Assembly: GCA_964508365.1 (NCBI GenBank)
Contig: CAZDTP010000004.1
Location: 1,681-65,680 of the forward strand
DNA: 64,000 nucleotides
Direction: 5' to 3'
From: an uncultured archaeon
Lineage (GTDB): Archaea; Asgardarchaeota; Lokiarchaeia; Sigyniarchaeales; SOKP01
The notes below the pieces were generated by a model. It was not told the DNA's origin. It saw only the letters and a program-made list of their open reading frames with translations, and did no database searches. The first letter of the stretch is position 1. Each line of letters opens with the position of its first letter. Shown here piece by piece: positions 2,539 through 62,037 of the stretch. A program made the translations under genes and the position numbers.

Positions 2539-2704
2539 TTTTTTTTATTAAACAGGCTAATTAAGTTTGTCAAATTATCGGTTTCTCACACAAAATTAGA
2601 ATATTTCTTTAAATAATAATAATGGTTAAAGGCTAGAATTCATATATAAGATGAAATACTCGTGAGAATTTGGTTTTACGTTAAATTTATCAAAGAAATA
2701 ATAA

Positions 2705-2776
2705 TTAACAATCTATACGCTCAACAAAATCGTCAGCAGTTTTTATTATTATAGGTTTTTTTTCATACTTGTCCAT
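2705..2776 (-). CDS. Putative 23-aa small protein MDKYEKKPIIIKTADDFVERIDC
   Basis: Hand-translated; SD-like AGAGGT (2785-2790) 8 nt before the ATG. Confidence 0.45.
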   Translation of the reverse strand: MDKYEKKPIIIKTADDFVERIDC

Positions 2777-2840
2777 TTTTATTTACCTCTTTTTATTGGT
2801 TTTTTGGGTATATTTTAATTAAAAAAATTAAAAAAAAAAT

Positions 2841-2939
2841 TTACTTCATACTTTTATCGCAAGAAAACTTAAGGTATTGAATTTCATGTGAATTTAAGTT
2901 CATTTTAGCTTTTAACGCTTTAATATCGGATTTTTCCAT
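2841..2939 (-). CDS. Putative 32-aa small protein MEKSDIKALKAKMNLNSHEIQYLKFSCDKSMK
   Basis: Hand-translated; SD AGGAGGT (2948-2954) 8 nt before the ATG; followed by a long U-rich tract on the transcribed strand. Confidence 0.5.
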   Translation of the reverse strand: MEKSDIKALKAKMNLNSHEIQYLKFSCDKSMK

Positions 2940-3190
2940 TAGCTTTTACCTCCTTTTTATTATTTTTCTTTTTTTGTTTTTTTTGTTCTTAATTAAAATA
3001 AGGGAAGAATACATAATTAGTTTTTAATACTAAACTGTAAATGGACTCTTGAACATTTGATGAACTGAACTAAATACCGTGAAGACGCAATCTACTATTA
3101 ACTCAGTGGATTTATTAAATGTTTTTACTTAATTTTTTTTAAAGTCAAACACATTAAGATTATTAATTAGTAAATCTTAAGAGTCTCATA

Positions 3191-3379
3191 ATGATTGATA
3201 GCTGGCTTTCTAAGACGAAATTTAAAGACATGTATGAGAAATTTGTGAGGAAATTTTTTCTCGGTAAAGTTTCTGCCAATCAACTTACTATAATCGGGCT
3301 AATTTTTGGACTCATAGGCTCGTTTTTAATATATCTTAATTTGATAAATGGGAAATTATTTTTCTTTTCTATTCTCTAG
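3191..3379 (+). pseudogene. N-terminal fragment of a CDP-alcohol phosphatidyltransferase-like protein
   Basis: VSANQLTIIGLIFGLIG resembles the family's first TM (PNxLT); ORF stops inside the 3' end of the convergent gene before any DGxxAR motif. Confidence 0.55.
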
Positions 3380-46235: not shown

Positions 46236-47279
46236 GTGTTATATATGGAAGCTGTGGAATACAAGGGCGAAAAATACGAAGTTAAAGAGGGATTTTTAGA
46301 CCTTGGTCTTCTTGAAATTGAAGATATATCTGATATCAAAGGATTAAATAAATTTGATATTAAACATTTAGAGCTGAATTCTAACGAAATTATCGAGATA
46401 AAAGGTTTAGAACAGCTTCAAAATTTAGAAATTCTTAATTGTGGAAGTAATAACTTATCCAAGATATCTGGGTTGGAAAATTTAAAAAATTTAAAAATTT
46501 TGCATTTAGCTTCTAACCAGATTACCGAAATTAACGGGCTTAATCAGTTATCTAATTTAAAAGAACTGTATCTAAGAGCTAATCCATTAACTCGCTTAAA
46601 AGGTTTAGATTCTCTAAGTTCGCTTCAGAAATTAGATTTATCCTGGAATATGATTGAAACGATTGAAGGACTCAATAATTTGGAGAATTTAGAAGTTTTG
46701 TGGTTAGCAGGAAATCAGCTCACAAAAATCCAAGGATTGGAAAAGTTGAAAAAATTAAAAGTTTTAAATTTAGCAGGAAACCAAATTTCTGAGATACAAG
46801 GACTTGATCAATTAAAAAATTTAAGTGAAATATATCTTAATGATAATAAAATACAAGAAATCAAAGGTTTAGATAATCTTACTGAATTAGACACGCTGTG
46901 GATAACAGCAAACCAAATTGAGAAGATCAACAACCTTGATAAATGTAAAAACCTACAAGTTCTTAACTTGAAAGATAACAATATATCTGAAATTAGTGGT
47001 TTATATTCGTTAACTAAATTAAATAAACTATTTTTATCTAGCAATATCATTTCTACTATTAAAGGTTTAGAAACCCTCCAAAATTTAGAGACTTTAGATT
47101 TAGGGAATAATCATATTAAGGTTATAAGAGGTTTAGAATCTTTAATGGTTTTGAAGGATTTATGGCTTCAGGAAAATAAGATTGACGAAGAATTGTTAGT
47201 GCAATTAGGTGGCTTGGATTCAGGCGGTTGTGCCATAGAACCGTTAAAATTTGTAGAATATTGCCTTGTTAACTTATAA
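46236..47279 (+). CDS. Leucine-rich repeat protein (SDS22-like 22-aa repeats)
   Basis: About 12 repeats of LxxLxLxxNxIxxIxGLxxL. Confidence 0.93.
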   Translation: MLYMEAVEYKGEKYEVKEGFLDLGLLEIEDISDIKGLNKFDIKHLELNSNEIIEIKGLEQLQNLEILNCGSNNLSKISGLENLKNLKILHLASNQITEINGLNQLSNLKELYLRANPLTRLKGLDSLSSLQKLDLSWNMIETIEGLNNLENLEVLWLAGNQLTKIQGLEKLKKLKVLNLAGNQISEIQGLDQLKNLSEIYLNDNKIQEIKGLDNLTELDTLWITANQIEKINNLDKCKNLQVLNLKDNNISEISGLYSLTKLNKLFLSSNIISTIKGLETLQNLETLDLGNNHIKVIRGLESLMVLKDLWLQENKIDEELLVQLGGLDSGGCAIEPLKFVEYCLVNL

Positions 47280-47307
47280 CCGAACTAATTTTAAAAAGAA
47301 TTCACCA

Positions 47308-48078
47308 TTATTCCAATATCCGATGAATATTATCTTTTATAATCTGATAACTTGTTGATTTATCGGGAATATCTATTATCGGTTTACCTTCCAAATCAAA
47401 TTCTGTTAAGATTTCATCCTCGGGAATCGAAGTTATCACAGTTAGATTGTACTCTTTAAGCTTATCTGTAATTTTAGCAATGTCTCCTTTAACTCTATTG
47501 ATAATTACGCCGATTTTTCTATAATTTGTAAATTTTTTGGCACTTTGACTTATTGAATTTGCCGTTTCTACGCTCCTAAGAGAAATATCTGTTACAATTA
47601 TTACATAATCAACGGATTTTATAACCATCCTATTAATTTGCTCGAGACCTGCTTCACAATCGATCAGCACGATCTCAAAATCTCTAGAAATTGATTCTAT
47701 GACTTTACGAAGCAATGCATTCGAAGGACAAAAGCAACCTGGACCTTCAGGTTGACCAATTGAAAACAAACTAAACGATTTACTTTCTTTTAGGGCATTA
47801 TAAACTTTAAAATCTATCTCCTCAGCTAAGGATTGGAAATCCTCTTTTTTACTAATTGTCTTATCGATCAAATTAGCTCTTATTTTCTCGAGGCTTATCT
47901 CAGGGACTAGTTTAACCATTTTACTCAGATGGGGATGGGTTGGATCTGCGTCTATTAGTAATATTTTATAATTATAGGATGTGGATATAGCTTTAGCAAT
48001 AAGTGTTGTCACAATTGTTTTCCCTACTCCTCCTTTTCCCGTAATAGCTACAATCAGTGGAATTTTTTTTAACTCCAT
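47308..48078 (-). CDS. cooC: CooC/AcsF-type Ni-insertion ATPase
   Basis: GKGGVGKT, IDADP, GPGCFCP (CxC), DCEAGLE. Confidence 0.88.
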   Translation of the reverse strand: MELKKIPLIVAITGKGGVGKTIVTTLIAKAISTSYNYKILLIDADPTHPHLSKMVKLVPEISLEKIRANLIDKTISKKEDFQSLAEEIDFKVYNALKESKSFSLFSIGQPEGPGCFCPSNALLRKVIESISRDFEIVLIDCEAGLEQINRMVIKSVDYVIIVTDISLRSVETANSISQSAKKFTNYRKIGVIINRVKGDIAKITDKLKEYNLTVITSIPEDEILTEFDLEGKPIIDIPDKSTSYQIIKDNIHRILE

Positions 48079-48103
48079 TCTTTGAATCCTTCCATTCGTA
48101 ATT

Positions 48104-48871
48104 TTAATTTTTTATCTCTTCTCGAGAAACTAATACTTGTTTGACATCATAACATTCTTCTTGATACGGACATACTTCACAACCCCAATCGTAATCACAA
48201 TCAATTCTCTTTCTCCACTCTTCAATTTTTTTTTTCCACTTCTCCCTAACTTCAGCTAAAATTTCTGAAGAGAGCACGATAAATTGATCAATAGAACTTG
48301 GATAAGAATTAATAAAAATAACTTCAACCGATTTTACTAGATCAGGGAACTTTTGTTTATACAACTGGACAATTGCGTTTCCCAATATCTCGAACGAAAA
48401 TCCTTTTTGGAGAGCGGAACTACTGATTCGACACCAAAATCTACGAGGAATGGTACGAATTGAGAAACCCTCTATTCCATTTGATATAAAATTTAATTGT
48501 CTTAACTCATCTTCATTTTCAGTAGTATTTTTATTTATCCCGATTAATAAAATAATCCCAAAATCAATTTTTGGCTCTTCAATTCTATTTACTTCTATTC
48601 CTAGCAACGAGATTCTTCCGTGATTGATTAATTTAATTTGTTCAATTGGAATTACAACTGAGAACGATTTTTTATTCATCCCACCAAGTTCTAAGCCTGT
48701 TTCCTCTTCAAGTATTATTTCTTTAAATCCATTCAATCCAATCTTAATTTTATTATCGACATGTGAATTGATCTGGTTATTAGTTGATTCATATGTAAAT
48801 AGGATTTTTCCAGTATCTTGTTCCTTCTCTAAGAACTCTCTTATCTTTTCAATCGCAGTTTTGGGTTCCAT
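48104..48871 (-). CDS. Short acetyl-CoA synthase beta (CdhC)-related protein with C-terminal Cys cluster
   Basis: NGIEG..RRFWCRISSSALQKGFSFEILG..FPDLVKSVEV resembles the CdhC WxRISK..KGF segment; ends CDYDWGCEVCPYQEEC. Confidence 0.6.
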   Translation of the reverse strand: MEPKTAIEKIREFLEKEQDTGKILFTYESTNNQINSHVDNKIKIGLNGFKEIILEEETGLELGGMNKKSFSVVIPIEQIKLINHGRISLLGIEVNRIEEPKIDFGIILLIGINKNTTENEDELRQLNFISNGIEGFSIRTIPRRFWCRISSSALQKGFSFEILGNAIVQLYKQKFPDLVKSVEVIFINSYPSSIDQFIVLSSEILAEVREKWKKKIEEWRKRIDCDYDWGCEVCPYQEECYDVKQVLVSREEIKN

Positions 48872-49050
48872 TAAAACAATACCAATCTAAATTAATCCAG
48901 TATTAAATTATAATGAAGGGGTATTAAACTTTATTTAGGTTTTAATGGTTTTTAAAGAGTTTTATTCTCAATATTGAATTCATAAATTTAATTTCTGAAT
49001 TCTTATTTAATGAATTATTTAATAATAATAATAATAAAAAAGGATAAATT

Positions 49051-49764
49051 ATGACGATTCAACCTAGTAATAGTAGTGAAAAGGATCCAACCTGTCATCT
49101 CTGTAATAGCTATAAATATTGTGTTTCTGGGAGACCAAATAAGAATTTAGAGAATTGTCCGATGAAGACCTCTCCAGAGATCGAGAAACAAGCTCGTGAA
49201 CTATATGAAAAAGATGATTTAATAAAGAAATCGGTACGTATAGCGTCTATTGTTGAGGCTACAGGATACATAAAATGGCCAAGATTGAGAGATACAATTG
49301 AATACGCGAAAGGAATGGAGTATAATAAATTAGGAATAGCATTTTGTGTAGGGTTGCTCAGTGAAGCAGAACAAATTGCCAAAATCTTAACAGATTACGG
49401 GTTTACGGTAGCTTCGGTCTGTTGTAAAACAGGAAGCGTCAAAAAAACGGATATAGGAGTCCCTAAAGAATACACAACGGTTTCTAAAACTGGGTATCCA
49501 ATTGGAACAATTACTTGTAATCCTGTAGCTCAAGCTCTTTTGCTAAATAAAGCTGAAACTGATTTAAATCTCATTGTAGGATTATGCGTAGGACACGATA
49601 CAACATTCACTAAGTTATCGAAAGCACCAGTTACTACCTTAATCGCAAAGGACAGATCTTCACCTCACAACCCCGCTGCGTGCTTGCTCAATCACTATGG
49701 TAAAACTTTCTTTTCAATGGATCTTAGTGAGATGAAACGAAAAGAATTTGAAAAAAAGAAGTAA
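49051..49764 (+). CDS. DUF1847-family Cys-rich metal-binding protein
   Basis: GIAFCVGL, VCCKTG, CNPVAQA, GLCVGHD. Confidence 0.85.
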   Translation: MTIQPSNSSEKDPTCHLCNSYKYCVSGRPNKNLENCPMKTSPEIEKQARELYEKDDLIKKSVRIASIVEATGYIKWPRLRDTIEYAKGMEYNKLGIAFCVGLLSEAEQIAKILTDYGFTVASVCCKTGSVKKTDIGVPKEYTTVSKTGYPIGTITCNPVAQALLLNKAETDLNLIVGLCVGHDTTFTKLSKAPVTTLIAKDRSSPHNPAACLLNHYGKTFFSMDLSEMKRKEFEKKK

Positions 49765-49859
49765 AATAGATAAATTTGCTCTTAAGATTCTTCTAACGAA
49801 TAGTTATTAAAATTTGGAAATTTAACATATATAGAAAAAATAAATTTTAGGTTATATAA

Positions 49860-50282
49860 ATGATTTCAATTCAAAAAGGGGAGGATTTGCTCTCAATTTC
49901 CTTAAGTACCATTTTAAGCTACAGGAAGGACGAGCCTGAATTTGAAAAACTTGTTTTAGATTGGAACAAGAAGATTTTAATTGAGATTGTAGATTTTTAT
50001 CCAATTGAAACTATATTTGATCACGATGAAATTAGATTCAAAGTAAGTGATATTGATAATAAAGTAGATCTGAAAGTTAGTATGAACATCTATACTCTTT
50101 TAGATCTAGCTTATGGAAGGGTAGGCCCTATAAAAGCCGTCTTTCAACGTAAAATAAGAATAAAAGGGTTATTCAAATTTGGAATTCTTTTGAAATTTAT
50201 AAAAATTTTTCTGAAAAGTATGCAAATGGTCGCTTCAGAACCTAACAATAATTATTACGAATTAAATAAACAAACTAGGTAA
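49860..50282 (+). CDS. SCP2-like sterol/lipid-binding domain protein
   Basis: D.KVSMN..TLLDLAYG..GP..AV...KIRIKG pattern of SCP2 folds. Confidence 0.7.
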   Translation: MISIQKGEDLLSISLSTILSYRKDEPEFEKLVLDWNKKILIEIVDFYPIETIFDHDEIRFKVSDIDNKVDLKVSMNIYTLLDLAYGRVGPIKAVFQRKIRIKGLFKFGILLKFIKIFLKSMQMVASEPNNNYYELNKQTR

Positions 50283-50300
50283 GATGGTGGAAGAAAACAT

Positions 50301-51776
50301 ATGACTGAAACAAAAAAAGGAAATTTGTACGAGAGGATTAGTAAAGAGGATGTGCTTAAAATATTAGAGGGGATATTTGGAAGTAAGAACGTAACAGATA
50401 AGTCGGTAGATTTATATCCCTATTCGTACGATATGACGGAATGTCAGCCTCATATGCCTGATTTCGTAGTAATTCCTGAAAATTCGGCACAACTAATAGA
50501 ATTGGTGAAATTTTGCAACAAGAATTCAATACCAATTGTACCTTACATATCTGGGAATAATGTAGGTGGTCTAACGATCCCAGAACATGGTGGTATCGTT
50601 GTCGATTTTGGGAAGAAAATGAATAAAATTCTTCACATCAATGAAAATATGATGTATGCTCTCCTAGAACCGGGAGTTACCTTCGGAGAACTAAAAAAAC
50701 ATTTAGACGAAAAGTATCCACATCTAAAATATAGTTACCCGTTCGCTCCACCTTACGCCGGAGTTGTTGGAAATGTAATTCTGAGTGGCATGAACAATCT
50801 TTCGTGTAAATTAGGCTCAATGGGTGATTCTATTAATGGTCTGGAAGTTATTACTGCTGATGGGGAACTTGTTCGAATTGGTTCTTGTTTTTATGGAAAA
50901 GACGAAGCGGATAAAGATAGTTGGTGGAGTAGGTATCCAATGCCAGACTTAATGGGCTTATTTATAAACTGGCAAGGAATGTCAGGGTTAGTAACTAAGT
51001 GTGCAGTTCAATTATGGCCCAATCCTCCCTTTCAAAAAACCTATCTTGGAATCGTTTTTGGTTTACCAGATATCGCACCGGTTATGAGAGAAGTTGGAAG
51101 GACAGAAATTGTAGATGACATTTCAGCGGTGAGCATTGAAGTAGTAAAGATGACAATAGAACTTCCAGAGCCTAAAAAAATACCAGGTGAACCCGATTTT
51201 GCTGCGCTCTTTTCTATTTCTGGCAGAACAGAAAATTTGTTCAGGGCAAAAGAAGAATATTTAAAATTAACTATAGAAAATCTGAAAAAACAAGGGATTA
51301 AAATTCTTCTCGTAGATGTTGACGAGTTTAGCAAACTATTTAGTTTAAGAGTAAGATGCCATTTGGATTTACCCGCAGTAATTCTATCGTTAGTAGAATA
51401 TTCTGGTCTAACATGGTTTGGATCCTATGCTCCTACACATAAACTCGAAGATTTGATTCCTAAGGTGAACGATTTATTTTTGAAATACAACGTTCCCCCA
51501 TTTATTTACATGAAAATCATGAAGCATTCTCATTACGGAATTTTTCGCCCGATCCTTCGATATAATAAATTCAAAGATGAGGATAAAATCCATAATCTAC
51601 TGAACGAAATTGCCGATCTATGTATCGCAGAGGGTTGTATCCCCTATAAAACGCCTGCTTGGATGACAGAAAAAATGCGAGAAGTAATTAATCCTGGTTG
51701 GCTAAAATTATTTGACAAAATTAAAAATTGCTTAGATAAAAACAATATTTTCAATCCCGGAAGGTGGAACACATAA
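50301..51776 (+). CDS. FAD-binding oxidoreductase type 4 (GlcD/D-lactate dehydrogenase-like)
   Basis: PDFVVIP, SGNNVGG, VEPG-like LEPGVT, GLEVITADG, DKNNIFNPG. Confidence 0.88.
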   Translation: MTETKKGNLYERISKEDVLKILEGIFGSKNVTDKSVDLYPYSYDMTECQPHMPDFVVIPENSAQLIELVKFCNKNSIPIVPYISGNNVGGLTIPEHGGIVVDFGKKMNKILHINENMMYALLEPGVTFGELKKHLDEKYPHLKYSYPFAPPYAGVVGNVILSGMNNLSCKLGSMGDSINGLEVITADGELVRIGSCFYGKDEADKDSWWSRYPMPDLMGLFINWQGMSGLVTKCAVQLWPNPPFQKTYLGIVFGLPDIAPVMREVGRTEIVDDISAVSIEVVKMTIELPEPKKIPGEPDFAALFSISGRTENLFRAKEEYLKLTIENLKKQGIKILLVDVDEFSKLFSLRVRCHLDLPAVILSLVEYSGLTWFGSYAPTHKLEDLIPKVNDLFLKYNVPPFIYMKIMKHSHYGIFRPILRYNKFKDEDKIHNLLNEIADLCIAEGCIPYKTPAWMTEKMREVINPGWLKLFDKIKNCLDKNNIFNPGRWNT

Positions 51777-51904
51777 ATTGTTAAATTTTTTCTAATTAAA
51801 AATTTAGAAAATGAGATTCGATCGTTAAATAAGAAATAAAAGAGAAAGATAAAAATTACTTTTAAAAATTCTGTTAATTTATTCAAATAAAGGTGATATA
51901 TTAA

Positions 51905-52936
51905 ATGATAGAAACAAATATTACAAAAATGTTTGGGATAAAACATCCTATATTTAGCGCTCCAATGGGTCCCTTTTTTACCCGCGATTTAGCCCTTGCT
52001 GTCAGTGAGGCTGGTGGTTTAGGAGTGTTATCAAACGTTAACATCATCGGCACAGATCCCGTTGACGAACATAAGGCAAGCCTTGAATATATGATTGAAC
52101 ATACTGACAAGCCATTCGGACTTAATATCCTTACATCTCGGAATAATCCTGGAGTGAGACAAATGGTTAGATCATTACCAAGAATAGTCATGGGTAATGT
52201 AAGAATGCGAGATCAATGTAAATATTGGCTAACTTCTGCAGGTTCTTCAAAAATTCTTGCAGAATCGAAAAGTTTTCAAGAATTAAGAGAAAATTCAGAA
52301 GTTAAGCACTTTCATGTAGCTCCAGCTGTATGGTTGGCTCAAAAGTGTGTAGATTCAGGAGTGGATGGAATAGTGGTAACTGGTACTGAAGGTGGAGGGC
52401 ATCAATCATATGAGAGAGTCAGTACTCTTGTTTTACTCCAACAGATTAATAAGAACTTCCCTGATTTACCAAAGATTGCTTGTGGGGGTTTTGCTACTGG
52501 CGAATCTTTAGCTGCGGCAATTTCTTTAGGTGCAGGAGCAATAGCAATGGGATCAAGATTTATAGCTTCTAAGCAGAGTGAATTTCATGAAAAATACAAA
52601 GCGTTAATTCCTCCGGGTAGCCCGCAAGATACGGGGCTCTATACTGGATCTTTCGGACCTATTCGCTTGTATAAAAACGAATATGCATTATCGCATCCCG
52701 CACCTAGCAGTAAAGAAGAAATGATCGCTTACGAAAATTCTATATCTCCAGAACAAAGAGTAAAAGATTTAGGTGCCTATGACAGGGTATATAACGGAGA
52801 TATTGATACTGGGGCTGTTCTACTAGGTCAATCAATAGGAATTATTGATAGTATAGACAATGTCAATGATATTATTGAACGGATAATAAATAAGGCTGAA
52901 ACTGTTATCAGAAGGAATAACTCTATGTTGAAATAA
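51905..52936 (+). CDS. Nitronate monooxygenase / FabK-like flavin enzyme
   Basis: KHPIFSAPM, VSEAGGLG, GTEGGGH, ACGG, AMGSRF, GQSIG. Confidence 0.88.
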   Translation: MIETNITKMFGIKHPIFSAPMGPFFTRDLALAVSEAGGLGVLSNVNIIGTDPVDEHKASLEYMIEHTDKPFGLNILTSRNNPGVRQMVRSLPRIVMGNVRMRDQCKYWLTSAGSSKILAESKSFQELRENSEVKHFHVAPAVWLAQKCVDSGVDGIVVTGTEGGGHQSYERVSTLVLLQQINKNFPDLPKIACGGFATGESLAAAISLGAGAIAMGSRFIASKQSEFHEKYKALIPPGSPQDTGLYTGSFGPIRLYKNEYALSHPAPSSKEEMIAYENSISPEQRVKDLGAYDRVYNGDIDTGAVLLGQSIGIIDSIDNVNDIIERIINKAETVIRRNNSMLK

Positions 52937-53026
52937 GACCCTATGTATACTTAATATAACCGATTTTATAATTTCTTTATAAATTGAACTAAAATTTGAT
53001 TTATTTGAACGAACAAATATTGGAGA

Positions 53027-53440
53027 ATGAATATTCTTAATATCGAATATCCAGATGATTTAATTTCCTTATCATTGAAGACTGTTTTCATTTCGAGGAA
53101 AGATGATAGGAAATTTATAAAACACGCGAAAGATTGGAATAAAAAAATCGTGCTTCACATCGAGCCATTCTATCCAGTGACAGTAGTCTTTGACGGTAGC
53201 GATATAAAATTTGAAAGGAAAGAATACCCTAACCCAGACATGAAGGTTAAAATTCATATCAACACCATGCTTGATATCGCCAATGATTGATTAAACCCAT
53301 TTTTTGCAATAGAAGAAGGGAAAAGGGAAATTGAAGGTTTGGGTGAAGATAGCGAAAAAATTCTGCGGTTTTATAATATTTTTGTAGTGTCTATGCAGAT
53401 GGTCGCTTAAGAGCCTAATGTGAATTACTATGAAATAAAT
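53027..53440 (+). pseudogene. SCP2-like paralogue with two in-frame nonsense codons
   Basis: Reading through TGA (53288-53290) and TAA (53408-53410) gives ...SMQMVA*EPNVNYYEINK versus SMQMVASEPNNNYYELNK in 49860-50282; end approximate. Confidence 0.8.
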
Positions 53441-53527
53441 AAAAATATTTTGTTTCTAACACTTCAATTTCCCAGACACAAAACTGAATAGTATTAAAAT
53501 ACAAAAAATAACAGGGGTGTAATAAAA

Positions 53528-54931
53528 ATGGAGAAAAAAAGTAATAATATTAAAAATTTATTTGTAATTAGGTATTCTAGTGAGGATATTCAAGAATGGA
53601 AAGATTTATTTGAGAAACTTGGTAGTTTTAGAGCCATAAGTCGTTATTTGCGTGATCGAAATGATGGAAGAGGTCCTTCTGCACCAACGATTATATCACA
53701 TTTAAAAAACAAATTTTGTCAAGAGGGAGAAGATTTTGATGATTGGATTAATCAGAATAGGAAAGGATATTCCGATGATGAGATTCAAGAATGGAAAAAG
53801 TTATACGAGCGTTTAGGTAGCTTTAGAGCGGTATGTAGACATATACGCAAAAAAAATAATAATCCAAACCTTTATTCATCTACAGTTGCTAATAGAATAA
53901 AAACTAAATCTTACAGAGAAAATTGGAATTTTGACAAATGGGTTAACAAATTTAAGAAAGGGTATTCTAGCGAGGATATTCAAGAATGGAAAGAATTATT
54001 TGAGCAGTTGGGAAGTTTTAGAGCAGTAAGTAGATTGATACGGGAAAAAAAAAGCAAAAAAAGTCCTAATGCTTCTATCGTTCATTATCGTTTAAAGAAA
54101 TTGTTTCAGTCAGATGAAAAAAATTTTAATAGATGGGTTGAGAAATTTTCACGAGTTGATGAAATATTGAAACAACAACATTATTCCCGGAAGGAAATGC
54201 AGGAATGGGAAAATTTATTTGAGCAACTTGGTAGTTTTAGTGCAATTAGTAAATATTTCAATTATCAAGAGGGGAAAAGTGCTGTTACATCAACAATTAT
54301 AAAGAATTTACGAAAGAAATTTAAAAAAGAAGACAGAAATTTTACCGAATGGGTAAACGAGTATTTTTCACCAGAATCAGGGATTGCTTCGAATATTGGT
54401 AGATTTGTACATAATGTTTTAGAGTTGTTGTTCATAAAATTTTGTTTAAAAAATGATTTAGATGCTTTTTATGAAGTAAGTTATGACAATGTAATTATTA
54501 GTCCAGATGAAGAAATCAAATTAATTATTATAGATTATACCATTGCAAACGATATGAGGAAAATAGTTGATAAATGTTTTAGAGGATATCATGGACCAGA
54601 AAAAAAGTTGATTATTGTTGTTTTTCTTTCAGATAAAATTATTACTCTCCCAAAGAATAGAAATATTCCATTTATTGAAAATATTGAAATTTTAAATGCT
54701 AAAGAATTTGCTAGTTTTATGGGATATACAGGAAAAGATCTATATTTGTATGAATATATTCGATATTTAGGACGAAAAGCTTTTTATGATAATAACGCAT
54801 ATGAAGAATTAGAAGAATTAAGCAGAAATGCCCTAAATGATTTAAACAGACTTGCAATAAAATATTCCTTTCGAAAAGAAGATTTTGAACGATTTATCTC
54901 ATTAAAAGGGTTGGGTTATTTATTTGAATAA
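53528..54931 (+). CDS. Protein with four ~65-aa helical repeats and a PD-(D/E)XK-like C-terminal domain
   Basis: Repeats YS..(D/E)IQEW..L(F/Y)E.LGSF.A start at 53573, 53768, 53963 and 54182; C-terminal GRFVHNVLE..FYEV..DNVI..IIDYT..K. Confidence 0.8.
   Translation: MEKKSNNIKNLFVIRYSSEDIQEWKDLFEKLGSFRAISRYLRDRNDGRGPSAPTIISHLKNKFCQEGEDFDDWINQNRKGYSDDEIQEWKKLYERLGSFRAVCRHIRKKNNNPNLYSSTVANRIKTKSYRENWNFDKWVNKFKKGYSSEDIQEWKELFEQLGSFRAVSRLIREKKSKKSPNASIVHYRLKKLFQSDEKNFNRWVEKFSRVDEILKQQHYSRKEMQEWENLFEQLGSFSAISKYFNYQEGKSAVTSTIIKNLRKKFKKEDRNFTEWVNEYFSPESGIASNIGRFVHNVLELLFIKFCLKNDLDAFYEVSYDNVIISPDEEIKLIIIDYTIANDMRKIVDKCFRGYHGPEKKLIIVVFLSDKIITLPKNRNIPFIENIEILNAKEFASFMGYTGKDLYLYEYIRYLGRKAFYDNNAYEELEELSRNALNDLNRLAIKYSFRKEDFERFISLKGLGYLFE
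53573..54365 (+). repeat. Intragenic tandem repeat, 195/195/219-nt period
   Basis: Units 1 and 3 are near-identical in DNA (tattctagYgaggatattcaagaatggaaaga...gttttagagc). Confidence 0.9.
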
Positions 54932-54936
54932 AAAGG

Positions 54937-56130
54937 ATGGTTAAAATGACAGAAATAAAGATACCGGATGAGATAATAGGAAAACAATTTTTAGAACTTT
55001 CATTTGAAAGATGCATTAAGTGCAGTACGTGTAAGTACAGTTATAAGGACTTCGAAAAATCGTGCCCGAGTGGAGAAAAATTCCTATTCGAATCGTATTG
55101 GGCATCAGGACGAATAAGAACTATCAGAGGTCTACTGTTGGGAGATTTGGAATGGACGGAGGATTTAATAGATCCTATATTTGCTTGCACAACTTGTGGA
55201 GCATGTATGGACGCTTGCCAAGCACCTCACGCTGATTATATAGTTGATATGATAGAAGCACTTCGAGAATTAGCCGTTCAACATATTGGTCCTGCGAAAA
55301 ATCAAGAACTGCTCGTATCGCGTTGCAATGAGCATTGCAATCCATATGGAGAAGAGAATTCTACGAATGAAGATTTAAAAACAAAATATAATCTTCCAGA
55401 CAAAGCTGAATGGGTGTATTTTATAGGTTGTACATCAAATTATCGGCAGCAGTCACTTAGAGATGCAACCCTAAGATTTTTAAAGAAAGCGGGGATAGAT
55501 TTTACTTTAATTGATGAGCATTGTTGTACAAGCCCGATGATTCGAACAGGTCAGTTATCTATCGTAAATGAATACATGAACTACAATAATACGGAAATTA
55601 AAAAAGCTGGAGCAAGTAAGGTGATTACCAGTTGTGCTGGATGTTATAGAACCTTGAGAAAGGATTTTGAAAAATATGGTGTGAAGCATGATTTTGAAGT
55701 ATACCATTCACTTGAGTTAGTGAAGAATCTCTTAGACGAAAAAAAGATAGAATTTAAATCTGAATATAATAAAACCGTTACCTACCACGATCCGTGCCAT
55801 CTGGGAAGGCATATGGGAATCTATGAGTTACCAAGAGAGGTTTACAAACAGATACCTGGATTAAATTTAGTAGAAATGAAAAGAAATCGAAATTTTGCAT
55901 GGTGTTGCGGTGCGGGTGGCGGTGTGAAAATAGGATATCCTAATTGGGCTCTTGAGATTTCAAAAGACCGACTTGAAGAAGCAAAAGAGACAGAAGCTAC
56001 TGTAATTTCTTCTACTTGTCCATTTTGCAAAACTAATTTAAATGATGCGAATGTAAAATATAATTTTGACTTCCAAGTTTTAGATTTGATGGAGATATTA
56101 GATCAAATTGAAATAGAAGTTAAGAATTGA
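54937..56130 (+). CDS. HdrD/GlcF-like Fe-S oxidoreductase (2x4Fe-4S + 2 CCG)
   Basis: CIKCSTC, CTTCGACMDAC, FIGC, HCCTSP, CAGC, YHDPCHLGR, CCGAGGG, CPFC. Confidence 0.9.
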   Translation: MVKMTEIKIPDEIIGKQFLELSFERCIKCSTCKYSYKDFEKSCPSGEKFLFESYWASGRIRTIRGLLLGDLEWTEDLIDPIFACTTCGACMDACQAPHADYIVDMIEALRELAVQHIGPAKNQELLVSRCNEHCNPYGEENSTNEDLKTKYNLPDKAEWVYFIGCTSNYRQQSLRDATLRFLKKAGIDFTLIDEHCCTSPMIRTGQLSIVNEYMNYNNTEIKKAGASKVITSCAGCYRTLRKDFEKYGVKHDFEVYHSLELVKNLLDEKKIEFKSEYNKTVTYHDPCHLGRHMGIYELPREVYKQIPGLNLVEMKRNRNFAWCCGAGGGVKIGYPNWALEISKDRLEEAKETEATVISSTCPFCKTNLNDANVKYNFDFQVLDLMEILDQIEIEVKN

Positions 56131-56160
56131 ATAATATTTTAAATTTAAAACTACATTTAA

Positions 56161-57441
56161 ATGGTTATTATGACCAAAATTGAACCAATAGATAAAAGTT
56201 TTTATTCAGCTTTTAATAAAGATGCTTGTACTGTTTGTGGTGAGTGTTTCCATAGATGCCCGATTATGGAGCTCACTATAGAAGAATCTGTTAGGGAGAT
56301 GAAAAAACTACTCGATGGTGAACCAACTAAAAGAGTACTGACAGAATGCCAAAGTTGTTACTCATGTAATTTTTACTGTCCTGAAAATGCTTATCCTGCT
56401 AGTTTAGTTCTACAACGCTGGAATGAACAGTATAAAAAAGAAGGTTTAAAAAAAAGAGGTAAATTTTATATGACCTTTTATCCTCATTATCCCAATTTTC
56501 GTTCTTATGTTATGGAACATTTGCCTGAGAAAACAATAGATTTAGTAAAAAACTGGGTGTCTTTAGAACCATTAGCAGGAGATACTCTAACCTACCCGGG
56601 ATGTAATGTGATTACATTTGCGGAACTAACTCAAGCGTCATTTTTTACCGACCTTGATATTCGAGGTAGATTGGAATATTGTTGTGGGGAAACTTTATTT
56701 CGAACGGGATACCGAGATGAATTATATCAAGTCACCAAAAGATTAGATAAATGGTTTAATATTCTGAAACCTAAGAAATTATTAGTTCTGTGTACTGCTG
56801 GAACTAACATGTTTAAGAATATTTTACCGCATTATGGATTAACTTACAAATTTGAAGAGATAAAATCATATATAGAATATTTATGGGAAAAACTTGAAAA
56901 TGGAGAGATTCAAATTAAGAATAAACTCAATATGACTATGACTATTCAAGACTCATGTTATTCTAAAATGTTTGGAGATGATTACATGGATTTACCACGC
57001 AAAATTTTAACCAAAATCGGAGTTAAAGTTATTGAAACAAATGCTTGTAGAGAAAATATGAGATGTTGCGGTATAGGTGCTGGTTTCTCAGTAGATTCTG
57101 CGTACCAACCGTTTAAGATCCGAAGTTCCACGCTTCGTAATTTTAAAGATATCAAAAAGACAAAAAGTGATGCGGTATGTGTTTATTGTGCTGGATGTTT
57201 AGCAACCTTCACAGCAAATAAAAAACTTTACTTTAAAAAATTAAAAGTATATCACATTATTGAGCTTATACAAATGGCAATCGGAGAAAAACCTTGTTTG
57301 ACTAAAAAAGCGAAAAAGAAAAGAGCAAAACATTTTTTCTGGGGAACCATGAAAAAGCAAGTCCCCATGATCAATTCGAAAGACACCTTTCAGTTAGCAG
57401 ATATTCCAGAAGACCCCCCATCATATGAGGAAGCGTGGTAA
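56161..57441 (+). CDS. HdrD-like (Fe-S)-binding protein
   Basis: CTVCGECFHRCP, CQSCYSCNFYCP, YCCGE, QDSC, CCGIGAG, YCAGC. Confidence 0.88.
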   Translation: MVIMTKIEPIDKSFYSAFNKDACTVCGECFHRCPIMELTIEESVREMKKLLDGEPTKRVLTECQSCYSCNFYCPENAYPASLVLQRWNEQYKKEGLKKRGKFYMTFYPHYPNFRSYVMEHLPEKTIDLVKNWVSLEPLAGDTLTYPGCNVITFAELTQASFFTDLDIRGRLEYCCGETLFRTGYRDELYQVTKRLDKWFNILKPKKLLVLCTAGTNMFKNILPHYGLTYKFEEIKSYIEYLWEKLENGEIQIKNKLNMTMTIQDSCYSKMFGDDYMDLPRKILTKIGVKVIETNACRENMRCCGIGAGFSVDSAYQPFKIRSSTLRNFKDIKKTKSDAVCVYCAGCLATFTANKKLYFKKLKVYHIIELIQMAIGEKPCLTKKAKKKRAKHFFWGTMKKQVPMINSKDTFQLADIPEDPPSYEEAW

Positions 57442-58805
57442 GATTGACAATCGGAAAAAGGATTTCTGGGTTTAGAGAGGACCTATGTGATTTATGTGGA
57501 GAGTGTTTTCATCAATGTCCTGTTTTACAGCTCTCAATTGAAGAATCAAAACAAGAAATGCAGAGATTAATTGACGGAAAAGAATCTAAGTATGTCCTCT
57601 CAAAATGTAATACTTGTTTAAGTTGTAACATTTATTGTCCTCAACAAGCAAACCCTTATCAATTAATTTTAGAACGATGGAACGATCTTTATAATAAAAG
57701 AGGTGCACCTCCACTTTATCGGTTTGTTTGTCCTACTGAAGAACCAAATATTTGGCAACTCCTAAATATATTTTTATCCGATCAAGAAAAAAAATGGGTT
57801 GATAACTGGATCAGCCACATCCCTAAAGCTAATGAGCATATTCTTTTAATAGGGAATTATACACATCTATTTCCCTTCGTTATTGGTGGAAGTGAGCTTT
57901 TAAAGTATTTTACACCTATCTCAAGGATCGATCAATGGGAAGGTGGGGCTTACTTATATCAAGGGGGATACTTAGACAATGTCCAAAGAATTGCTGCTCG
58001 ATGTGCTAAGGATTTTAACTCTTGGGGTGTAAAAAAAGTAACCCACACTCTAGATGCGGTGCATTACATCTTTTCAGAAGTGCATCCTAAAGAAATGTTA
58101 GTGAATCATACGCAAGAATTCATTAATTTTAATGAATGGATATTAAAACAGATAAATAATGGAACATTAAATTTGCCCAAAAAATTAGGTTTAACGATCA
58201 CTGTACATGATAATTGCTTTTCAAAAGCACTTGGTGGAGCATATTGGGATGTCCCACGCGAAATTTTGAAAAAATGTGGTTGTAACCTAAAAGAAATGAA
58301 ACATATTAAAAAAGATTCGCTATGTTGTGGGTTTGGTGCAGGAGCGTCGTGGGTTAAGAATATGTCTATTCCTTTTGACATTATATCAGAGGGTATAAAA
58401 AAGTTTAACGAAGCAGAAGAAACAGGAGCAGATGCATTAGTAACTTACTGTGGTGGTTGTCTTTATCTCTTATGGGCAACAAAGGAATTATTAGGTTACG
58501 ATATAGATCTTTATCATATTATAGAAATCGTCCGTATGGCTATGGGAGAGAAACTCCTCTACCCTAAAGCTCATAAAAAACGCGCTTGGGATATTATTAC
58601 AATAATTACTTATCAATTACTTGTTTCTATTGTTCAAACTAATTTTTTTATAAAAAAAATCACATATGATAAAGATATGAAAACATTTTGGCCTAAAAGA
58701 TATCTTGTTCTTAAGATCATTAGAGTATTGTTTAATGTCTCACCTATACGCAAAATGTATCGTAAAATGTTTGTGGTATTAATGCGGTTAATAAAAACCA
58801 GATAA
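57435..58805 (+). CDS. HdrD-like (Fe-S)-binding protein with degenerate first CCG domain
   Basis: CDLCGECFHQCP, CNTCLSCNIYCP, HDNC, CCGFGAG, YCGGC; first CCG is replaced by WEGG. Confidence 0.85.
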   Translation: MVRLTIGKRISGFREDLCDLCGECFHQCPVLQLSIEESKQEMQRLIDGKESKYVLSKCNTCLSCNIYCPQQANPYQLILERWNDLYNKRGAPPLYRFVCPTEEPNIWQLLNIFLSDQEKKWVDNWISHIPKANEHILLIGNYTHLFPFVIGGSELLKYFTPISRIDQWEGGAYLYQGGYLDNVQRIAARCAKDFNSWGVKKVTHTLDAVHYIFSEVHPKEMLVNHTQEFINFNEWILKQINNGTLNLPKKLGLTITVHDNCFSKALGGAYWDVPREILKKCGCNLKEMKHIKKDSLCCGFGAGASWVKNMSIPFDIISEGIKKFNEAEETGADALVTYCGGCLYLLWATKELLGYDIDLYHIIEIVRMAMGEKLLYPKAHKKRAWDIITIITYQLLVSIVQTNFFIKKITYDKDMKTFWPKRYLVLKIIRVLFNVSPIRKMYRKMFVVLMRLIKTR

Positions 58806-58830
58806 AATCAAAAATGAGTTCAATTACTCA

Positions 58831-59049
58831 TTACCACGCAAAATGTTTAAGTATCGCATTAGTAGGACATGCGTCTTGGCAAGCTAAACATTCAATACAT
58901 TCAATAATATCTTCGGCAACAACTTTACCGTTTACAAGGCTATAGACCTCTGCGGGGCAAACACTTACACAATTCGCTGCTCCTACGCAGAGATCTAAAT
59001 CAACTTCTACCCAATTATCGCCATCTTCCCATCTTTTTACATTTACCAT
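58831..59049 (-). CDS. 2x[4Fe-4S] ferredoxin
   Basis: CVGAANCVSVCP and CIECLACQDACP. Confidence 0.9.
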   Translation of the reverse strand: MVNVKRWEDGDNWVEVDLDLCVGAANCVSVCPAEVYSLVNGKVVAEDIIECIECLACQDACPTNAILKHFAW

Positions 59050-59241
59050 ATTATTTCTTTAGTGTCTTTTTAATTTATATATAATTATGTTGGTTGCATC
59101 TGAAATTAAAGATTTATGTTTTTAGTTTGAAATCAGAGTTTTTCCTCTCTTTTTATTTTCATTAATATTATGAAGTATAATCGAAGTATTTTAATAAAGA
59201 AAGTAAGAAAAAAGAAGTAAAAATTTTAAAAATTTTATCAA

Positions 59242-60342
59242 CTAAGCACTTTGAGCGTTAGCATTTACACTGCCAGTTGATGTGCCTAATGAAAATAGAT
59301 ATCTATACATCGCATCTCCGTAGTTTAAAGTAGAGTAAACGCTTCCAAAACTTGTGATCTCCATAGTTGCATGAGGCGTGTAATTAATTGATCCTGTGCT
59401 AGTTGAGCTTATGAATCTAACATTAGTGTTGTTTAAATTGTCTCTATAAAGCACATCAATGCTTCCTGTGGAAGTTTTCCAACTACCAGTTACATTTGCG
59501 CCCATAGTTATATACTGATAAAGATCTGCATCAATACTACCTGTTGATGTCATAAGGTTTAAACTAATGTCTTTTGTGTATACCATATTGTAACTCTTAA
59601 AGTTCACACTGCCTGTGGAAACTGTCCCTATTAAGTTATCGCCCATTAGACAATTGGTATAGTTTAACGATAATGAGCCAGTTGATGTTAGAGCTCTAAA
59701 ACCACAAGTAAAATTTGTTTTAGCAGCAGAAGATTCTACACTACCCGTGCTAGTCTCGAGTCTAACTTTCCCTCGAAATTCGTTATTACCTAATATATTC
59801 AATTTGACTGAGCCTGTACTCGAAGTTAATGATGTTCCATTTAGGATAACACCATCGGAAACCTGCATTTCAATAGATCCTGTAGATGTTAAGGCTGTGA
59901 GATCGTATACTACATCTGTTCTTAATGTAACAGCGACAATGATGTTATAGGATTTAAACCAATGCGAAGGATCAAACCAAATGTCTGGTGAAGTTAGTAG
60001 ATTAAAAGTAGCAGTCGTATTGTCCCACCACTCTGTATTTGGATGAAAGAAATCCTCATAAGTCTTTCCTTCCATATACAAGCCCATAATTTCTATATCA
60101 ACATCGATTTTTGCATAATAGGTCGTTGGAGAATTATTATACTTTAAGAGAATTTTTCCGATATCAACATTGAAGGTAAGATCTTCTATAGGATCGGGAG
60201 AACTTGGTTCGTACTTAAAATTAAACGAATTTTCGATAACCCCTCTAGTTACGAAACCGTAGATAATGAATCCTAAACCACCACCAACAATAAGGACAAC
60301 AGCAACAATTAGCGCAATTTTATAATTTCTCATTTTTTTCAC
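59242..60342 (-). CDS. Membrane-anchored DUF4097-like beta-strand repeat surface protein
   Basis: N-terminal basic + TM; nine (T/S/V)STGS(I/V/L) repeats. Confidence 0.75.
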   Translation of the reverse strand: MKKMRNYKIALIVAVVLIVGGGLGFIIYGFVTRGVIENSFNFKYEPSSPDPIEDLTFNVDIGKILLKYNNSPTTYYAKIDVDIEIMGLYMEGKTYEDFFHPNTEWWDNTTATFNLLTSPDIWFDPSHWFKSYNIIVAVTLRTDVVYDLTALTSTGSIEMQVSDGVILNGTSLTSSTGSVKLNILGNNEFRGKVRLETSTGSVESSAAKTNFTCGFRALTSTGSLSLNYTNCLMGDNLIGTVSTGSVNFKSYNMVYTKDISLNLMTSTGSIDADLYQYITMGANVTGSWKTSTGSIDVLYRDNLNNTNVRFISSTSTGSINYTPHATMEITSFGSVYSTLNYGDAMYRYLFSLGTSTGSVNANAQSA

Positions 60343-60515
60343 ATTAATTTTGTTTTTTTTATTTGCTTTATAATGAAAATTTTTGGATTATATTTAAATG
60401 AAATTTAGACTGATTTTTATTACTAAATATAGTATTATAAAATATTAATGTAAAATTTGCATCTTTAACAGTGTTTTATTATGAGATTTCATAAATAAAA
60501 TAAAAAAAGAAGAAT

Positions 60516-61043
60516 TTAGAGATTCTTCACTAAAGAAATTGCAAAATTCTTAGCGTTTTCGAGATCCTTTTCATTAGGGCGACCTTTAATTTTTTCTCTA
60601 TCTTTTTTCGCTTCCTCTCTTTGGTCTTCGGGCAATCTTTCTAACATAGCTAACTGAGTTTCTAAGGGAATACCTAAATTCTCGCCTACACAATCAAATT
60701 CACCTATAATTTCGCTATTATGCTTTTTAATAATATCAGTTATCCGTTTAAATGGTTCTTGATATAATTTTAAACTTGCATGCGTACAAAAATAAACAAA
60801 TTTTGCAGGGAGTTCAGGAACAGCCATTTTTATTATATTTAATATCGATTTATCAGTTCTGCTGGCATAAACTCCTGAACCTAAAAACAAAATATCATAT
60901 GAACTCAATGTTGTAGGGTCCACATCATTAGCAGGAATTAAGTCTACATCGCAGTCTGTTAACCCATCTTTCATGCTATTAGCCACTTTTTCGGTATTTC
61001 CCGTATTTGAAAAGAATGTAATTAATATCCTCAACATAATCAC
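60516..61043 (-). CDS. Flavodoxin family protein
   Basis: FFSNTGNTEKVA, LGSGVY, FCTH. Confidence 0.9.
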   Translation of the reverse strand: MIMLRILITFFSNTGNTEKVANSMKDGLTDCDVDLIPANDVDPTTLSSYDILFLGSGVYASRTDKSILNIIKMAVPELPAKFVYFCTHASLKLYQEPFKRITDIIKKHNSEIIGEFDCVGENLGIPLETQLAMLERLPEDQREEAKKDREKIKGRPNEKDLENAKNFAISLVKNL

Positions 61044-61134
61044 TAATCTCTTTTAATTAGTATAAAAATAAAAAATTATTATTATTTTTAGAATTTTTTA
61101 AAAGAAAAGCAATCTATAGATTTATGTCCCGAAA

Positions 61135-62037
61135 TTATAATTTTAAAGCATAGAAGTTTATAGCGTTCTCAACAGTTATTTTACTTACTTCTTGTTGAGA
61201 GGTATTGTGAGAATAAGCTATTGCCGCTATAGAGTATTTTACATTTAAAGGCACATTTATTGGCCCCCTTAGATAAGGGTGTTGGTAGTAACTATCTGTT
61301 TCTGTAACTAAAGCAGATAATGGAGATGGTTTTGTTACTCTACGCCATTTGTTAATCCCGTAAGCTGAACTTGGAACAGATAATGTGTAACCTTGTTTGG
61401 GCAAAAGTATTCCATACTCATCTGGACCTGAGAAACAATGCCACATTATGTGTTTAGGATTTATATTAAAATCTTTGACTATGTTAAGAATTTCTTTTGT
61501 CGCGCCATCCCTTTCATTATAACGGTGTTTAGGGTGGTCTCGATCGAACTCGTGTTCAGCCGCGTTTCTAACGTGCAGAACATACGGTTTATTAAACTCC
61601 TTTGTTAATTCGAATATTTTTTTTAGTTCTGTAACCTGCTTTTCTCTTTTTTCGAGAGTCTTTGCGTGATGAAAATCCAAACCAATTTCTCCAATTGCCA
61701 GAAATTTTTCTTGATAAATTTGAACATTTTCAACCCAGTCTTTCCAATCTCTATTATATAGGGATTTAGGTGTGAAGGTGACAGTTTGAGGTGCCCAACC
61801 AATTGTAAAACCAATTTTCTCCTTTCCTTTAACAAAATTTAGGATTAATTCAAGAGTACTGTTATTGATCGAGCTGGTTACTAAGTATACACCTCCATTA
61901 TTCAAGAAGTCTCGATATTGCTGCTCATCAGAAGGTAACCTATCGTTTTTTTTAGGTCGAGGGAATGGTAGATGACAATGAACATCGACAATTTTCAGAT
62001 TTTCTTCTGGTTCTGGGATGTTGATTTTCTTGGGCAT
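61135..62037 (-). CDS. tatD: TatD family metal-dependent hydrolase
   Basis: DVHCHL, GEIGLD, LHVR, HCFS, ETDS. Confidence 0.9.
   Translation of the reverse strand: MPKKINIPEPEENLKIVDVHCHLPFPRPKKNDRLPSDEQQYRDFLNNGGVYLVTSSINNSTLELILNFVKGKEKIGFTIGWAPQTVTFTPKSLYNRDWKDWVENVQIYQEKFLAIGEIGLDFHHAKTLEKREKQVTELKKIFELTKEFNKPYVLHVRNAAEHEFDRDHPKHRYNERDGATKEILNIVKDFNINPKHIMWHCFSGPDEYGILLPKQGYTLSVPSSAYGINKWRRVTKPSPLSALVTETDSYYQHPYLRGPINVPLNVKYSIAAIAYSHNTSQQEVSKITVENAINFYALKL

Follow-up and report, generated by a model that had tools for sequence, protein, structure and literature searches.

What is a gene for a repeat protein with a nuclease-like C-terminus doing in the middle of a redox gene cluster? The question is raised by a stretch of 64,000 nucleotides from an uncultured Asgard archaeon (assembly GCA_964508365.1, contig CAZDTP010000004.1, positions 1,681 to 65,680; the whole stretch is hereafter the window), in which an open reading frame (ORF) at 53528-54931 codes for a 467-residue protein. 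From comparative genomics, and from predicted folds whose Z-scores are middling, we lean towards the view that the gene is selfish and encodes a site-specific DNA endonuclease resembling the homing endonucleases. This reading is suggested because an array of helix-turn-helix (HTH) units is joined to a conserved domain of predicted restriction-type catalytic fold, because both modules swap partners, including a LAGLIDADG domain, because relatives occur sporadically at fixed sites beside conserved genes, and because the gene has been swapped exactly for a resident gene, the neighbour of which has then decayed.

A preliminary description of the window had placed four repeats of about 65 residues at 53573, 53768, 53963 and 54182, and all four start coordinates proved exact. 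The protein is laid out as follows:

53528..54931 (stop codon included), plus strand: nuclease ORF, from ATG to TAA, 467 residues comprising an N-terminal leader, four HTH-like units and a C-terminal domain of predicted PD-(D/E)XK fold.
53573..53764, plus strand: repeat unit 1, residues 16-79, modelled with four helices.
53768..53959, plus strand: repeat unit 2, residues 81-144, the source of most HTH fold matches.
53963..54151, plus strand: repeat unit 3, residues 146-208, with an extra linker of 10 residues behind it.
54182..54367, plus strand: repeat unit 4, residues 219-280, the sole unit retained in the one-repeat relative P0004.
54392..54721, plus strand: predicted nuclease core, residues 289-398, with helix α1, strands β1-β3, helix α2, strand β4 and strand β5.
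54410-12 (H295), 54422-24 (E299) and 54473-75 (E316), plus strand: candidate active-site codons, from family conservation and the model.
54485-87 (D320), 54533-35 (D336) and 54572-74 (K349), plus strand: candidate active-site codons, on the same grounds.
54722..54928, plus strand: C-terminal helical extension of the nuclease domain, residues 399-467, conserved together with the core.

The C-terminal domain (C-domain) is predicted to have the fold of a PD-(D/E)XK nuclease. An AlphaFold2 model of residues 281-467, built with 67 whole, unaltered sequences, reached a predicted local distance difference test score (pLDDT) of 96.5 and a predicted template modelling score (pTM) of 0.91. The core of the model runs in the order α-βββ-α-β, followed by a fifth strand and a helical tail (model elements: helix 2-28, strands 32-35, 41-44 and 52-58, helix 63-70, strand 79-85), and matches the PD-(D/E)XK core of a helix, a three-stranded antiparallel meander, a helix and a fourth strand. 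When 48,161 chains were compared with a structural aligner independent of Foldseek, almost all of the 50 neighbours listed (Z 4.3-6.7) were PD-(D/E)XK nucleases, the exceptions including the N-domain of a rhomboid protease and two designed proteins. Can2 was the top neighbour (Z 6.7, root-mean-square deviation (rmsd) 3.0, 108 residues aligned), and the list included AF1548 (Z 5.9), Card1 (5.9), Avs3 (5.8), Bse634I (5.5) and McrC (5.4) as well as BamHI, SgrAI, EcoRII, Cfr10I, BglII, cap-snatching endonucleases and the defence nucleases NucC and Cap4. The R2 endonuclease (Z 5.0; 8ibw, 9dou and 9nl3, 5.0-5.6) and FokI (2fok_A, Z 4.4, 18% identity) were also found. A second structural comparison added HerA-DUF (Z 6.9) and LmuA (Z 6.5) and gave the same picture. 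The weak top rows of the Foldseek search in PDB were EcoO109I, Can2, HindIII, Mus81, BspD6I and MspJI, and the best row in BFVD was a phage 'PD-(D/E)XK nuclease superfamily protein' (E 8e-3). The weight of the fold assignment is carried by the agreement of the neighbour list and not by the Z values. As the AlphaFold model and nearly every top neighbour agree, the likeness to PD-(D/E)XK folds first noticed in the C-terminal motifs appears well founded at the level of predicted structure.

Conservation within the family points to a candidate active site. The residues H295 (51 of 53 members), E299 (49/54), E316 (55/56), D320 (58/59) and D336 (62/64) are nearly invariant, and K349 is lysine in 50 of 64 members and histidine in the remaining 14. 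The most conserved columns also include G291, N321 and Y337, and the motifs G..VH..LE, YEV, DNVI and IIDYT, picked out in the preliminary description, turned out to be the most conserved columns of the family. All conserved family residues are present in the ORF except at position 355, which is H (Q in most members, H in 11 of 65). In the model, the first helix carries H295 and E299, E316 is found where strand 1 ends, D320 directly precedes strand 2, and strand 3 and the helix that follows it contain D336 and K349, respectively; the nearly invariant polar residues appear to fall at the active-site position of the PD-(D/E)XK fold. The catalytic spacing, which had been called compressed, is indeed short, most relatives having about 20 extra residues between D320 and D336. 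K349 may take the role of the canonical lysine; relocation of this lysine is known within the PD-(D/E)XK superfamily. A two-copy dimer test of the C-domain scored 0.05 against a mark of 0.42, which counts neither for nor against binding.

The repeats follow each other in direct orientation with a spacing of 195, 195 and 219 nt, and the array is basic (isoelectric point (pI) 9.6), the C-domain acidic (pI 5.6). In an AlphaFold model of residues 1-288 (36 sequences; pLDDT 89.9, pTM 0.59) each unit is a small bundle of four helices. Compared as single units with the exhaustive aligner, the repeats gave HTH fold matches with Z 5-7.3 over 45-68 residues. The best neighbour was a phage small-terminase HTH (4xvn; Z 7.3, rmsd 1.8, 52 residues aligned), and the others were LysR-type N-domains (Z 6.1-6.7), the plant and human telomere Myb (TRF), Cdc5L Myb, c-Myb R1 and CoREST SANT domains (Z 5.2-5.9; Myb-type structures 2qhb, 2din, 1w0t and 1mbe), and HTHs of GerE/LuxR, SpoIIID, transposases and sigma-4. 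The HTH-like nature suspected from the sequence pattern is therefore supported by the predicted fold, and the repeats are probably HTH-like DNA-binding units. Across 177 aligned units the conserved positions are Y1, W9, L12, Y13, G17, F19, V22, L26 and P34, and further T38, I39, L43, F47, F54 and W57, all hydrophobic or structural, and they form the hydrophobic core. The least conserved positions, 35-37 and 40-42, lie at the start of helix 3. Pfam matches to the repeats in homologues were to HTH or Myb families, all below the domain thresholds; homologue P0015 had 28.1 bits against a whole-protein Pfam cut-off of 24.4, with no single stretch passing. Atlas look-alikes, which are leads only, were HTH families for the repeats and PDDEXK and MunI families for the C-domain. 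Profiles of the repeat domain and of the C-domain, searched against PDB sequences, gave irrelevant matches alone (mevalonate kinase and a designed repeat protein).

Pairwise, the units share 71-82% DNA identity across the first 77 nt and 34-48% identity as protein (64-68 aligned residues). Tandem Repeats Finder reported no array, because the copies are too diverged. Units 1 and 3 had been described as almost identical in DNA and the array as recently expanded. The two units are, however, 81-82% identical across the first 77-78 nt and 63% identical across the 189-nt unit, and the relatives contradict the expansion: a given unit best matches its counterpart at the same array position in homologues (73-83% in the case of P0003) and shares at most 47% identity with its own sister units. 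In a tree of units from the query and from P0001, P0002, P0003, P0004, P0005, P0009 and P0011 (27 rows, units shorter than 46 residues being dropped), units 2, 3 and 4 pair with the same-numbered units of P0003 with starred support, and unit 1 is nearest to unit 1 of P0003 without starred support. The signature in helix 3 is specific to the position in the array and is kept across proteins just 54% identical overall. Since the units group by position across homologues, the four-unit array appears to be old and position-conserved, and a recent repeat expansion was rejected. With a hidden Markov model (HMM) derived from the four units, 176 units were detected in 51 of the 112 proteins examined, and the array is therefore beyond chance. 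Mapping with this HMM also bears on the number of repeats, a matter raised in the preliminary description: relatives have between 1 and 6 units. In P0004, which is 63-67% identical, the same leader is followed by just one repeat, resembling unit 4, before the C-domain.

The gene around which the question turns has taken the place of another. The cluster at 49860-58805 consists of duplicated pairs of SCP2 and FAD-linked oxidase genes followed by three CCG/4Fe-4S (HdrD/GlpC-like) genes, with an NMO-type flavoenzyme gene also among the neighbours, and the redox setting given earlier is thus real. Within the genus the make-up of the cluster varies, with one or two oxidase pairs and with the NMO gene present or not. 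Among other genomes of the genus, 30 of 30 share the CCG gene that follows the nuclease gene, and the relatives of this CCG gene on genome contigs are labelled Promethearchaeota or Promethearchaeia, i.e. Asgard archaea. At 17 of the 19 same-genus loci fetched, an FAD-oxidase gene abuts the CCG gene, and one locus is without upstream sequence. The nuclease gene is present at none of these 19 loci, and at none of 64 loci of named Promethearchaeota metagenome-assembled genomes; with genomes in common, these two sets are not independent. At this locus the gene is neither syntenic nor invariant. The order oxidase A, NMO, SCP2-B, oxidase B, CCG was found at six of the 64 loci (L037-L040, L042, which begins inside NMO, and L053), and judging from the alignments the window derives from this arrangement. 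The window is collinear with L053 over 51007-53447 (89% DNA identity) and again from 54967. The features of the exchange are:

53448..54966, no strand: segment without counterpart in L053, 1,519 bp against the 1,505 bp of L053 with oxidase B (2505-4009).
53027..53449, plus strand: SCP2 (SCP2-B) pseudogene, about 89% DNA identity to the intact L053 gene, with TGA at 53288-53290 and TAA at 53408-53410.
53492-53501 and 53514-53519, plus strand: putative expression signals of the gene's own, located within the replaced segment, namely a TATA-like stretch rich in A/T and GGGGTG 8 nt before the ATG, from a reading of the sequence only.

The left junction (53447/53448) is just after the SCP2 pseudogene, the right junction falls no further than ~10 codons into the CCG gene, and the nuclease gene fills the slot of oxidase B over nearly its whole coding length. 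The gene had been described as dropped into the redox cluster; the setting holds, but rather than being inserted between genes it has replaced one. The replaced segment has a G+C content of 0.24-0.31, compared to 0.33-0.40 in the flanks. The upstream SCP2 gene is inactivated, as had been noted, by its two nonsense codons; it is a young pseudogene without a frameshift, and its usual partner is the replaced oxidase B. An assembly artefact at the junctions is ruled out: an independent 34.5-kb contig, the run of which is possibly the source of this DNA, spans 52800-55200 without difference, and the right junction is also bridged by short contigs of three further runs. A location in an intein or intron was rejected, the ORF being free-standing: it has a start and a stop of its own and lies between two others. 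A promoter and terminator scan gave the shuffled expectation, and is uninformative since the scan is of bacterial type and the host archaeal. In another genome of the genus (G014:C40, loci L023/L036) SCP2-B and oxidase B are both missing, with 155 bp between the NMO and CCG genes. As the oxidase slot has also changed there, it has been altered independently at least twice.

Relatives of the gene were looked for with a family profile. Of the 399 phylum genomes, 86 had between one and seven matches each: 81 of 134 genomes in the taxonomic family of the window, 23 of 41 in its genus and 4 of 264 elsewhere in the phylum. Judged from these matches, the family is nearly confined to one Promethearchaeota family. 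The in-frame stops counted in the matches were not taken as a pseudogene rate, as matches often run past the gene's own stop, also in the case of the intact ORF described here. In the 134 species genomes of the taxonomic family, the nearest relative of the nuclease protein is 39% identical and located elsewhere. Twelve further family loci were fetched and 36 flanking ORFs scanned, and these were housekeeping or metabolic genes that differ between sites, with one small-molecule-type S-adenosylmethionine-dependent methyltransferase near one of the 12 loci. Seven of the 12 (L102, L104, L105, L108, L110, L112 and L113) are within a few kb of a contig end, as is expected of strain-variable or repeated DNA that breaks assemblies.

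Some sites recur. Members of the family are present at the 3' end of pyrG in three genomes of three genera (42-50% identical), between rpS8e and hypA in two genomes (46% identical), and beside hisS and an alanine-racemase-like gene in three genomes including L035 (40-84% identical), and at each site the members are more closely related to one another than to any others. Between the genomes with a member at the pyrG site, pyrG itself has 73-75% identity, and this site is without a member in 30 of 30 other family genomes sampled. Such sporadic presence at otherwise conserved sites resembles that of free-standing homing endonucleases. The pyrG (CTP synthase) genes beside members at L104 (3260-4970) and L108 (352-2065) read in two frames, with the change near codon 93, and pyrG matches start only at residue ~90 in eight genomes of four genera; this may be a split gene, a frameshift or recoding, and we do not link it to the nuclease. 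At L034 (4659-5963, G018:C17) an acyl-CoA dehydrogenase gene split by one in-frame TAA adjoins P0112, a 576-residue homologue with an N-terminal zinc-ribbon-like CxxC...CxxC; this is the second damaged gene found beside a member.

The preliminary description could not name the repeat family, and none of Pfam, NCBIfam and PADLOC names either domain. For the nuclease protein the best Pfam score was 18.8 bits against a cut-off of 31.8, with no Myb/HTH match, the best NCBIfam score was 22 against 50, and nothing in PADLOC was significant. PHROGs gave one match, to the phage family phrog_1764 of unknown function (E 8e-9), which covers the first half of a repeat. A word-indexed search of 5.8 billion clusters gave 7 relatives, and an exhaustive HMMER search of 1.84 billion representatives 108 relatives at E <= 0.001, 26 of them at <= 1e-30. 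The closer kin (54-79% identity) come from short unbinned contigs alone. When the single nuclease protein was searched against genome contigs no relative was found, and against metagenome contigs there was one weak match of 37 residues (L101). Pfam at E <= 1e-4 found no family in 49 of the 62 homologues scanned.

Mapping with script-built HMMs on 111 proteins and the query showed the repeat in 51 proteins, the C-domain in 91 and both in 31. The C-domain follows other N-terminal arrays in about 40 proteins, and in P0038, P0043 and P0047 it is preceded by a different repeat of ~70 residues. The 767-residue P0111 has two copies of the Myb-like repeat and a LAGLIDADG_3 homing-endonuclease domain (E 3e-12), and in P0006 and P0007 the Myb-like repeat is joined to a C-terminal domain without a name. 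The latter domain was not counted as a nuclease, its match to the PDB 'putative homing endonuclease' 5gkk being weak (E 0.1; also phrog_27771). In a quick tree of 78 C-domains, from which matches covering fewer than 150 profile positions had been dropped, 21 of 27 repeat-bearing proteins fall into a single cluster of weak support, and supported branches require at least two changes; the modules have therefore mostly been inherited together, with some shuffling. P0047, P0051, P0067 and P0100 have a TFIIB cyclin repeat after the nuclease-fold domain and a different ~70-residue repeat (…APT…L…GY…) before it. P0039 and P0044, which have weak repeat matches, consist of periodic units of ~88 residues with a very high score for Pfam gp32 (PF08804, profile positions 1-62 only), and one of them has a thioredoxin domain; their kinship to the family is doubtful. 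The genome of the window has a 518-residue C-domain paralogue with a different N-terminus (L002, 409-3183, G000:C108) and a truncated remnant of the C-domain (L003, 1600-3194, G000:C28). Each is followed by a homologous ORF of ~400 residues without a Pfam family, and the two genes may form a module.

Taken together, the modular DNA-binding nuclease with a repeat array proposed in the preliminary description is supported at the level of predicted fold and genomic behaviour, and a mechanism may be outlined. The basic array of four Myb/HTH-like units would read an extended, asymmetric DNA site, using one recognition helix per unit, the first residues of which are the variable positions of the repeat, and the acidic PD-(D/E)XK domain would cut nearby. 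D320 and D336 would bind the metal ions, probably with help from E299/E316 and H295, and K349 on the following helix would stand in for the canonical lysine. The gene may have entered the chromosome by break-and-repair or by recombination, exactly into the slot of the FAD-oxidase paralogue, after which the upstream SCP2 gene, now without a partner, would have decayed. A further idea, which we regard as a long shot, is that the 65-residue units form a modular DNA-reading code, each unit reading a fixed short step of DNA via the variable residues at the start of helix 3. Were this so, the arrays of 1-6 units with a common cleavage domain would be a natural re-targetable nuclease system, adding to the structural classes of homing endonuclease one that is native to the archaeal lineage closest to eukaryotes, and the site-specific subfamilies, each beside a different housekeeping gene, would be explained.

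Several observations weigh against a homing-like endonuclease. Foldseek gave no match at E <= 0.001 in PDB or BFVD for the C-domain model or for the repeat model, and all fold matches are middling (best Z 6.7-7.3) and may reflect a common arrangement alone. The catalytic motif is a variant in which the canonical (D/E)xK lysine is missing (D336-Y-T338). On viral contigs no relative was found. The junctions of the replaced segment have no inverted or direct terminal repeats and no duplication, and no target site marks them. Free-standing homing genes are normally added between genes, and the clean gene-for-gene swap is unlike their usual footprint. Fixed sites with 40-50% identity between members would also be expected from old vertical inheritance with frequent loss. 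Two hints at transcription point the same way, namely the TBP-interacting protein TIP26 among the neighbours of the C-domain (Z 5.3) and the TFIIB cyclin repeat after the C-domain in 4 of the 62 homologues scanned.

These hints would suit a protein that serves its host, a transcription or chromatin factor or a repair enzyme whose fold is used for a cellular task or for binding and whose gene is inherited vertically and often lost. The old, position-conserved array and the subfamilies that keep their positions beside pyrG, hisS and rpS8e across genera are in line with it as well. However, an active enzyme is suggested by the retention of the candidate catalytic residues in almost every member, the 134 genomes of the taxonomic family have no orthologue above 39% identity, the gene replaced another and is not ancestral at the locus, and the pyrG site is empty in 30 of 30 other genomes; we consider a host function unlikely. 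A stand-alone defence nuclease of a restriction-like or anti-mobile-element kind, in which the HTH array recognises foreign or modified DNA and the PD-(D/E)XK domain destroys it, would account for the patchy, lineage-restricted distribution by turnover of defence genes, and Can2, Card1, Avs3, McrC, LmuA, HerA-DUF, Cap4 and NucC are among the best neighbours of the C-domain; the low G+C content compared to the flanks would also fit. Such a role nevertheless seems improbable to us, to about the same degree, in view of the result with PADLOC and of the surroundings: no methyltransferase domain was found in the 14 neighbouring ORFs scanned (46236-62037), no sensor or ATPase partner is beside the gene, where the SCP2 pseudogene and redox genes are, and the ORFs flanking the 12 other loci are housekeeping or metabolic and different at each site. 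Site-specific subfamilies at fixed chromosomal positions are atypical of defence islands.

The gene might also be a decaying passenger, the inactive remnant of a once mobile gene, kept by chance without a present function. The truncated C-domain on another contig of the same genome, several family matches elsewhere with two or more in-frame stops, and the pseudogene next door lend this some colour. The ORF is, however, intact over 467 codons, it has kept all conserved family residues save 355, and its sequence is identical in contigs of four sequencing runs, and this explanation appears the least probable of all. Of the readings considered, that of a selfish, homing-like endonuclease is thus the one we favour, by a modest degree of confidence.

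Little is on record about selfish, site-specific nucleases of the Asgard archaea (Promethearchaeota), a group in which the exchange of DNA is poorly understood. The family, of about 100 representatives at 50% identity, shows gene-for-gene replacement within an operon, decay of a neighbouring gene and sporadic occupation of fixed pyrG, hisS and rpS8e sites. If its proteins home, they would provide direct evidence of natural recombination between Asgard genomes and help to explain the variation of gene content between strains. Small tandem HTH units with position-specific recognition helices and a detachable cleavage domain also belong to a type of architecture that has proved useful in genome engineering. 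In the full-text literature searched, including passages of papers on Asgard mobile elements and viruses (coverage of full texts being incomplete), no description of the family was found, and on the basis of the models we regard it as an unnamed, Asgard-restricted family of modular HTH-array PD-(D/E)XK nucleases.

Parts of the predicted architecture have counterparts in known systems. The Myb/SANT/TRF domains and three-helix HTHs resemble the modelled repeat in size, helix arrangement, aromatic core (W9, F19 and W57) and use in tandem, as in Myb R1R2R3, where several units are employed, but the repeat has a fourth helix and a period of 65 residues. In the R2 retrotransposon protein, which is selfish and site-specific, a Myb-type DNA-binding part is combined with a restriction-like endonuclease, and the predicted combination here is loosely similar; R2 is eukaryotic, has a reverse transcriptase placed between these parts and is not similar in sequence. 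FokI, a type IIS enzyme with a cognate methyltransferase, has N-terminal HTH-type recognition domains and a separate C-terminal PD-(D/E)XK cleavage domain, and again the likeness to the modelled protein is a loose one. Unlike the recognition subdomains of FokI, which are not sequence repeats, the units here form a true repeat array (1-6 units in relatives), and no methyltransferase is adjacent.

Among the systems described, the nearest analogue appears to be I-Bth0305I, an 'EDxHD' homing endonuclease. According to its report, this modular, multidomain enzyme has a Vsr-like C-terminal catalytic domain and a footprint of ~60 bp, and its gene is in a group I intron of a phage recA (PMC3239194). 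It would share with the present protein a selfish multidomain build, in which a DNA-binding region is followed by a C-terminal catalytic domain resembling restriction endonucleases. A profile of 67 family members searched against all PDB chain sequences found no nuclease at E <= 10 that would link the family to the Vsr-like/EDxHD group. The two differ in that here a tandem array of 65-residue, four-helix units is encoded by a free-standing gene in an archaeal chromosome. In being without intron or intein, lodged among conserved genes and sporadic, the gene is also like the free-standing phage homing genes of the T4 segB type (PMC2330249), such genes being known to carry flanking sequence along. 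Whereas these are phage genes for GIY-YIG or HNH enzymes, the gene described here codes for a predicted PD-(D/E)XK fold, is found in an Asgard archaeon and has replaced a gene of similar length.

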